DNA from: Escherichia coli
GTDB taxonomy: Bacteria > Pseudomonadota > Gammaproteobacteria > Enterobacterales > Enterobacteriaceae
Strand: one strand, 5' to 3'
Assembly: GCF_003790525.1 (NCBI RefSeq)
Contig: NZ_CP033635.1
DNA length: 64,000 nucleotides
Each line of letters begins with the position of its first letter. Position 1 is the first letter of the stretch. Positions 15,098 through 15,519 of this stretch are shown here, piece after piece. The position numbers were made by a program, and so were the translations under genes. Below the pieces are notes generated by a model. The model was given only the letters and a program-made list of their open reading frames with translations. It made no database searches and was not told where the DNA came from.

Positions 15098-15519
15098 ATA
15101 AAAACAGCAAGTTATAGAAAATATTTTTAACTGAGTTTACATACACTGATGAGATAACGGCTACCGCCCCTGTAACAGTCTGAAGTTGATCTGGGTAATC
15201 AAATACCGGTGTAGTGATTAGGAAACAGGGCCCGGATAACATCATGGCGCAGGTCATTGAACCTACTAACGACGCCGGATATATGGTCGCAAACCGCATC
15301 GAACCAGTACTTGCCTCACCTGGGACGTCCATATATGCTCAACAAAAGAGAGCGTTCAGAATTCTAGCCTCACATCATACCTGAAACCGCGTCCCGACCA
15401 TAGATGATTTTATCGCCGGTTTTTTATAACAATTGTTATATTTCTGTAACAATCTTTCCGTAGACTCACGTGCATAAAAATGATTCCCCTTGAAATCGAT
15501 TTTTTGAAAGGAAACCGCA

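Follow-up and report, generated by a model that had tools for sequence, protein, structure and literature searches.

A probable PhoB site extended into a perfect palindrome in the promoter of an accessory Escherichia coli phoX gene

Pho boxes are defined as direct repeats set 11 bp apart, and phoX is a member of the Pho regulon (PMC9306846); for V. cholerae phoX, regulation by PhoB was demonstrated experimentally (PMC4714964). In E. coli K-12 the boxes of phoA, pstS and phoB follow the consensus CTGTCATA(A/T)A(A/T)CTGTCA(C/T), and a -10 hexamer comes 9 nt further downstream: the phoA box, which ends in ...GTCACG, is followed at this distance by TATAGT, and the hexamers of the proximal pstS box, phoB and phoE are TATTTT, CATAAT and TAAAAA, respectively. 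ChIP-seq shows PhoB bound at the phoE region, which depends strongly on this regulator (PMC10294691). Its box, TGTAATATATCTTTAACAATCT, consists of two 11-bp direct repeats with imperfect TGTNA cores, again at 9 nt from a weak -10 hexamer and with no -35 hexamer. In other Proteobacteria (V. cholerae, Pasteurellaceae, Neisseriaceae), phoX genes of the same family are preceded by canonical TGTCAT repeats scoring 15-22 bits on a K-12 PhoB matrix.

We analysed a 64-kb stretch of E. coli DNA (the window) in which the palindrome TATAACAATTGTTATA, perfect over 16 bp (8 + 8 nt, 100% complementary), ends 79 nt upstream of the ATG of an open reading frame confirmed as PhoX. The features of this promoter are listed in Table 1. 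The initial annotation had placed the palindrome about 80 bp upstream of phoX, in agreement with the distance measured here, and had correctly described it as perfect, while its coordinates (15424-15439) fall one base short of the true position, 15425-15440. The TAACAAT repeat that it had reported next to the palindrome was found as well, this heptamer being present twice in the region, at 15427-15433 and 15447-15453. The N-terminus of the encoded protein carries a twin-arginine motif, SRRRLLQAG. We consider it very probable, from the comparisons given below, that the site serves as a PhoB-dependent promoter of the accessory E. coli phoX gene and that the left arm of the palindrome has no role in it. 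On this reading, the right arm together with CTGTAAC is an ordinary Pho box, and the site does not reveal a new regulatory system.

Table 1. Features of the phoX promoter region and their positions in the window
Feature	Position	Strand	Basis
IS3-family transposase gene fragment, upstream border of the phoX promoter module	15101..15347	-	89-94% identity to IS3-family transposase genes of Klebsiella and Rahnella plasmids
Palindrome, arms TATAACAA and TTGTTATA	15425..15440	.	sequence; +1 relative to the coordinates first reported
Left arm TATAACAA, probably incidental	15425..15432	.	unconserved; polymorphic (A15428G); 0.1 bits (15423-15440)
Upstream 11-bp Pho-box repeat (candidate) TTGTTAT-ATTT, TTGTTATATTT	15433..15443	+	right palindrome arm and A/T tract; GTTAT nearly invariant in the alignment
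PhoB site core (candidate), 18 nt, TGTTATATTTCTGTAACA	15434..15451	+	ChIP-seq motif register; 13.0 bits
Downstream 11-bp Pho-box repeat (candidate) CTGTAAC-AATC, CTGTAACAATC	15444..15454	+	TGTAA and A invariant in 24/24 aligned promoters
Predicted -10 hexamer TAGACT	15461..15466	+	9 nt after the 18-mer; T, A and final T invariant in the alignment
Predicted transcription start	15472..15474	+	inferred from promoter geometry, 6-8 nt past the -10 hexamer
Shine-Dalgarno sequence AAGGAA	15508..15513	+	GGA invariant in the alignment of 24 phoX promoters
phoX, Tat-exported alkaline phosphatase (predicted)	15520..17499	+	Pfam PF05787, E = 6e-166; RefSeq 'PhoX family protein'

To score the site, we used a PhoB position weight matrix built from 59 K-12 ChIP-seq sites (PMC10294691, Table 1). 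The score of the 18-mer TGTTATATTTCTGTAACA is about the median of the bound sites: set against the leave-one-out scores of the 59 sites it ranks 33rd out of 60, with 32 of the 59 higher, and it exceeds those of K-12 phoE (10.0 bits) and phnC (12.7 bits). Control segments of 300 nt taken from the distant phoX loci described below reached 13 bits in 0.66% of cases (n = 1066). Among the ~128,000 positions of the window the 18-mer is the third best, and because two others score slightly higher, the matrix score alone is not decisive. A minus-strand match to the matrix at 20308-20325 (AATAACAATTGTGTCATA, 13.2 bits) has ATAACAATTGT in common with the palindrome; it lies inside a phosphoethanolamine-transferase ORF (19738-21240) and is thereby intragenic, a location shared by most of the PhoB sites reported as non-functional in K-12. 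At one core position the phoX box falls outside the range of bound sites: the T at position 4 (TGTTAT) is found in none of the 59 ChIP-seq sites (C in 42, A in 17) and costs about 6 bits, this range being a feature of the consensus and not a strict definition. The phnC sequence CTGTTAG was considered as a precedent for T at this position and was rejected as out of register with the ChIP motif.

The arrangement of the elements around the 18-mer is also that of known PhoB-dependent promoters. TTGTTAT (from 15433) and CTGTAAC (from 15444) form direct repeats whose starts are 11 bp apart, with an A/T-rich tract after the core, and the 9-nt spacer between box and -10 hexamer is identical to those of K-12 phoA, pstS (proximal box), phoB and phoE. 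The plus strand of the phoX promoter showed no sigma-70 -35/-10 pair, as expected for a promoter that uses PhoB in place of the -35 hexamer. The phoE box is identical to positions 15434-15455 of the window at 19 of 22 nucleotides, and the two promoters are alike in their paired 11-bp direct repeats with imperfect TGTNA cores, their spacer, the missing -35 hexamer and a weak -10 element (TAAAAA in phoE vs. TAGACT here). The window differs from phoE in box position 4, which is T and not A, and in its second repeat, which is the better one (TGTAAC vs. TTTAAC); in front of its box stands a mirror-image copy of the first repeat, and the gene that it drives was acquired horizontally. With phoA, pstS and phoB the phoX promoter shares the direct repeats, the distance to the -10 hexamer, the replacement of the -35 element and a phosphate-scavenging product, whereas the boxes of these three genes reach 20-24 bits vs. 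13.0 bits for phoX, and pstS has tandem boxes vs. the single one here. A second Pho box upstream and in phase was rejected, since the matrix gives 0.1 bits at 15423-15440. Likewise, the only minus-strand match at the promoter (8.3 bits) is the same site read backwards, and TATAACA of the left arm was rejected as a third direct repeat, being 9 and 20 bp from the real repeats and off the 11-bp phase.

Next to the comparison with K-12 boxes we examined conservation of the promoter across species. Searching one genome per species yielded 80 phoX loci; the 140 nt upstream of phoX were compared for 38 Enterobacteriaceae species, and 24 representatives were aligned with MAFFT. The 38 promoters have a single block in common, composed of (T)GTTAT, an A/T tract, one variable base, TGTAA(C/T)A, 9 nt and TAnnnT; in the form TGTTAT-N5-TGTAAY, 9 nt, TAnnnT it is present in 36 of them. 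Conservation in the alignment sets in at 15435, with T at 15434 kept in most promoters, and is absolute (24/24) for TGTAA, the A that follows and three bases of the -10 hexamer (T, A and the final T). To the left of 15434/15435 no conservation was seen, either across the 38 species or in the 24-promoter alignment; therefore, no part of the left palindrome arm falls in conserved sequence. Of the 40 distant loci, which come from Pasteurellaceae, Neisseriaceae, Moraxella, Ignatzschineria, Wohlfahrtiimonas, Vogesella and others, 33 have a plus-strand box scoring 13 bits or more no further than 300 nt from the start, with a median of 16.4 bits. Most of these boxes read canonical TGTCAT-N5-TGTCAT, in many cases with a TATACT-like hexamer after a 9-nt gap, and they are placed with respect to the -10 hexamer and the start codon as is the TGTTAT/TGTAAC version of Enterobacteriaceae. 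The Enterobacteriaceae block is thus, to all appearances, the positional equivalent of a textbook Pho box. The suggestion made earlier that CTGTAAC is a weak match and that the regulator may not be PhoB is contradicted by the score of 13.0 bits, the 9-nt geometry and the canonical boxes of the distant orthologues.

From the matrix match, the geometry, the conservation and the distribution of alleles we infer PhoB binding, control by phosphate and the start of transcription. PhoB and PhoR were assumed to be present in this strain from its identity as E. coli, phoB being a K-12 gene. Under low phosphate, PhoR would phosphorylate PhoB, which would bind as a head-to-tail dimer on TTGTTATATTT and CTGTAACAATC, so that both repeats would occupy the -35 position; PhoB would then contact and recruit sigma-70 RNA polymerase to TAGACT. 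The predicted transcript would have a leader of about 47 nt that includes the AAGGAA ribosome-binding site, and its product would be exported via the Tat pathway. If this is true, the horizontally acquired phoX came with its own promoter, wired into the core PhoB regulon of the host, and would be a tidy case of an acquired gene arriving responsive to a conserved global regulator.

The T at position 4 and the A at position 15 of the box are kept together in 36 of 38 species and about 20 genera (the tally for position 4 covers loci L001-L036, L049, L068 and L079), and jointly they create a dyad, TGTTA-N8-TAACA (ATTGTTA-N8-TAACAAT in the window, 15432-15453). This invariance, along with the absence of a position-4 T from the 59 PhoB ChIP sites, could be taken to mean that another Enterobacteriaceae regulator binds the dyad, and that PhoB does not bind here, or is not alone in doing so. 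The conserved dyad loosely resembles the DeoR operator, TGTTAGAA-TTCTAACA, with a spacing of N8 here vs. N6. We regard such a regulator as unlikely. The TGT of the second repeat is invariant although it lies in the 'spacer' of the dyad, as a reader of direct repeats requires, and the A/T tract with the fixed 9 nt to the -10 hexamer fits class II activation by PhoB. In addition, at this position the distant orthologues carry TGTCAT repeats of the canonical kind, which form no dyad, and no candidate regulator is linked to phoX. The palindromic operators of dimeric repressors such as DeoR do have the dyad symmetry of TGTTA and TAACA in common with the window; their spacing differs, and unlike them the symmetry seen here is not conserved among alleles and species.

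The same features could belong to a composite site at which PhoB shares with, or competes against, a second dimeric regulator, or else to a distinct low-affinity mode of PhoB binding tuned for late induction. We hold this reading, in either form, to be quite improbable. Were the site composite, the left arm in the lineage of the window would be a third TAACA/TGTTA element for the second factor.

Variation within E. coli bears directly on the left arm. Among 94 chromosomal copies of 15396-15444, 40 were identical to the window and 54 had one mismatch. In all four one-mismatch copies that were read (L082, L086, L097 and L098, three of which belong to the 94) the change is A15428G, which turns the sequence into TATGACAATTGTTATA and breaks the palindrome. 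T15445C accompanies A15428G in each of these four copies and is present without it in one strain; the natural T15445C allele scores 10.8 bits on the PhoB matrix. A plasmid copy that is ~92% identical (L094) also has G at 15428, in addition to G15435A. As G is thus found in the plasmid outgroup too, it is probably the ancestral base, and the perfect palindrome is probably derived by a single G-to-A change. All sequence to the left of 15436 has been replaced by a truncated IS3 in further plasmids of E. coli and E. albertii. Judged by these alleles, the left arm appears to be dispensable in nature. Under the PhoB-dependent reading of the promoter, the palindrome would exist only by the coincidence that the 8 nt ahead of the first repeat equal its reverse complement, the match having probably become perfect in some E. 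coli lineages through the single G-to-A change. As a caution, one real half-site and a single point mutation can between them leave a perfect palindrome in a promoter as a by-product.

In the window, three perfect palindromes with arms of at least 8 nt were observed vs. a mean of 1.13 in first-order Markov simulations (P(>=3) = 0.11); with this simulated mean, one or more such palindromes per window is the usual outcome, and the perfect 16-bp palindrome found here is nothing beyond chance. Given the right arm, the prior for a perfectly complementary 8-nt left arm is ~4^-8, which counts against regarding the arm as incidental. The motif search proposed along with the initial annotation, run here on the 64-kb window, returned no second copy of the palindrome; the sole near copy, at 30901, has 3 mismatches and lies within an ORF.

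These data argue against the palindrome being an operator that overlaps the Pho box and through which a separate dimeric helix-turn-helix regulator, encoded by the island or by the host, would repress or modulate phoX. The perfect dyad symmetry and the overlap with an activator site, as expected for a repressor, would both suit such an operator, and a LysR-family gene (12474-13532) lies 2 kb upstream. Yet the left arm is unconserved in the 38 species, is broken by A15428G in 4/4 variant copies read, falls within the 49-nt stretch that carries a mismatch in more than half of the chromosomal copies, and is degraded or replaced in plasmid copies, while palindromes of this length are expected by chance and this one has no further copy in the window. 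Among 20 loci, no conserved gene neighbours phoX; therefore, no dedicated regulator travels with phoX. As to the LysR gene, IS debris separates it from phoX, and in strain Ecol_AZ159 the 8 kb ahead of phoX lack it. A LysR-type T-N11-A box was rejected, an even-length palindrome giving T-N10-A or T-N12-A. Such a separate operator is, in our judgement, very unlikely. Hence, of the original proposal, the existence of a regulatory site in the phoX promoter holds, and dyad symmetry as its functional unit does not, the left arm being unconserved in the 38 species and polymorphic in E. coli.

The window is accessory DNA of E. coli, a genomic island inserted at selC. A P4-type tyrosine integrase gene (23054-24238, minus strand) adjoins tRNA-SeC (24538-24632, minus strand), and from this position next to the tRNA gene the phoX region is identified as a selC-inserted island; the core flank consists of MFS_2 and GH31 genes (24868-28635). 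At >=99% identity the phoX region is present in 98 of 5426 complete E. coli genomes (~2%), many of them from chickens and extraintestinal infections, and its carriers in E. coli are the selC island and plasmids. The 146-bp phoX promoter was found in only 98 genomes, at a median of one copy per genome. Searches with blastn for similarity of the phoX flanks to other genera gave nothing outside phoX. Our literature search found no published work on E. coli phoX or its promoter; candidate papers were rejected, as they mention only eukaryotic 'phox'.

IS debris surrounds phoX in the window. The IS elements that border the gene differ and lie very close to its Pho box, with junctions in different replicons that fall within ~35 bp of it. 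The window has an IS3-family fragment and an IncF plasmid has IS2, whereas plasmids of E. coli and E. albertii have a truncated IS3 that abuts the equivalent of 15436, with the first two bases of the box lost. It seems that phoX and its minimal promoter were moved as a unit by IS activity. These flanking fragments and close junctions could suggest that the palindrome acts structurally, as a cruciform, as a terminator of read-through from upstream, as an IS end or as a recombination scar. We consider this extremely improbable, given that the ssDNA fold is weak (-3.3 kcal/mol, z = -1.9) and at its best uses the conserved inverted repeat and not the perfect palindrome, that no terminator-like site was found at the palindrome and no convincing Rfam match (only TPP at 15120-15234, off the palindrome, with 18.8 bits vs. 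a 54.3-bit cut-off and E = 0.54), and that the promoter is single-copy and not a dispersed repeat, with the end of the IS3-family fragment at 15347 lying 78 bp from the palindrome.

Several other features of the island were noted. Downstream of phoX, an outer-membrane beta-barrel gene and an EptA-like phosphoethanolamine transferase gene (18816-21240) are inherited together with phoX in the islands of E. coli; neither gene showed a Pho box in its upstream region. A cluster in 5099-13532 has genes for oxamate carbamoyltransferase subunits (AllG-like and AllH-like), a CoA-ligase protein resembling FdrA and a carbamate-kinase-like protein, followed by a gene for an ankyrin-repeat protein (11610-12215), unusual in E. 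coli, and by the LysR regulator gene mentioned above. Elsewhere in the window, a 14-bp perfect palindrome, AGCAAACGTTTGCT (39192-39205), is situated between the divergent ORFs 37747-39147 (minus strand) and 39418-40623 (plus strand) and resembles the PurR operator core, GCAAACGTTTGC. Inside ORF 37747-39147 lie two other perfect 16-bp palindromes, CCAGAACCGGTTCTGG at 37998-38013 and GCGCAACCGGTTGCGC at 39093-39108, which have a common AACCGGTT centre.
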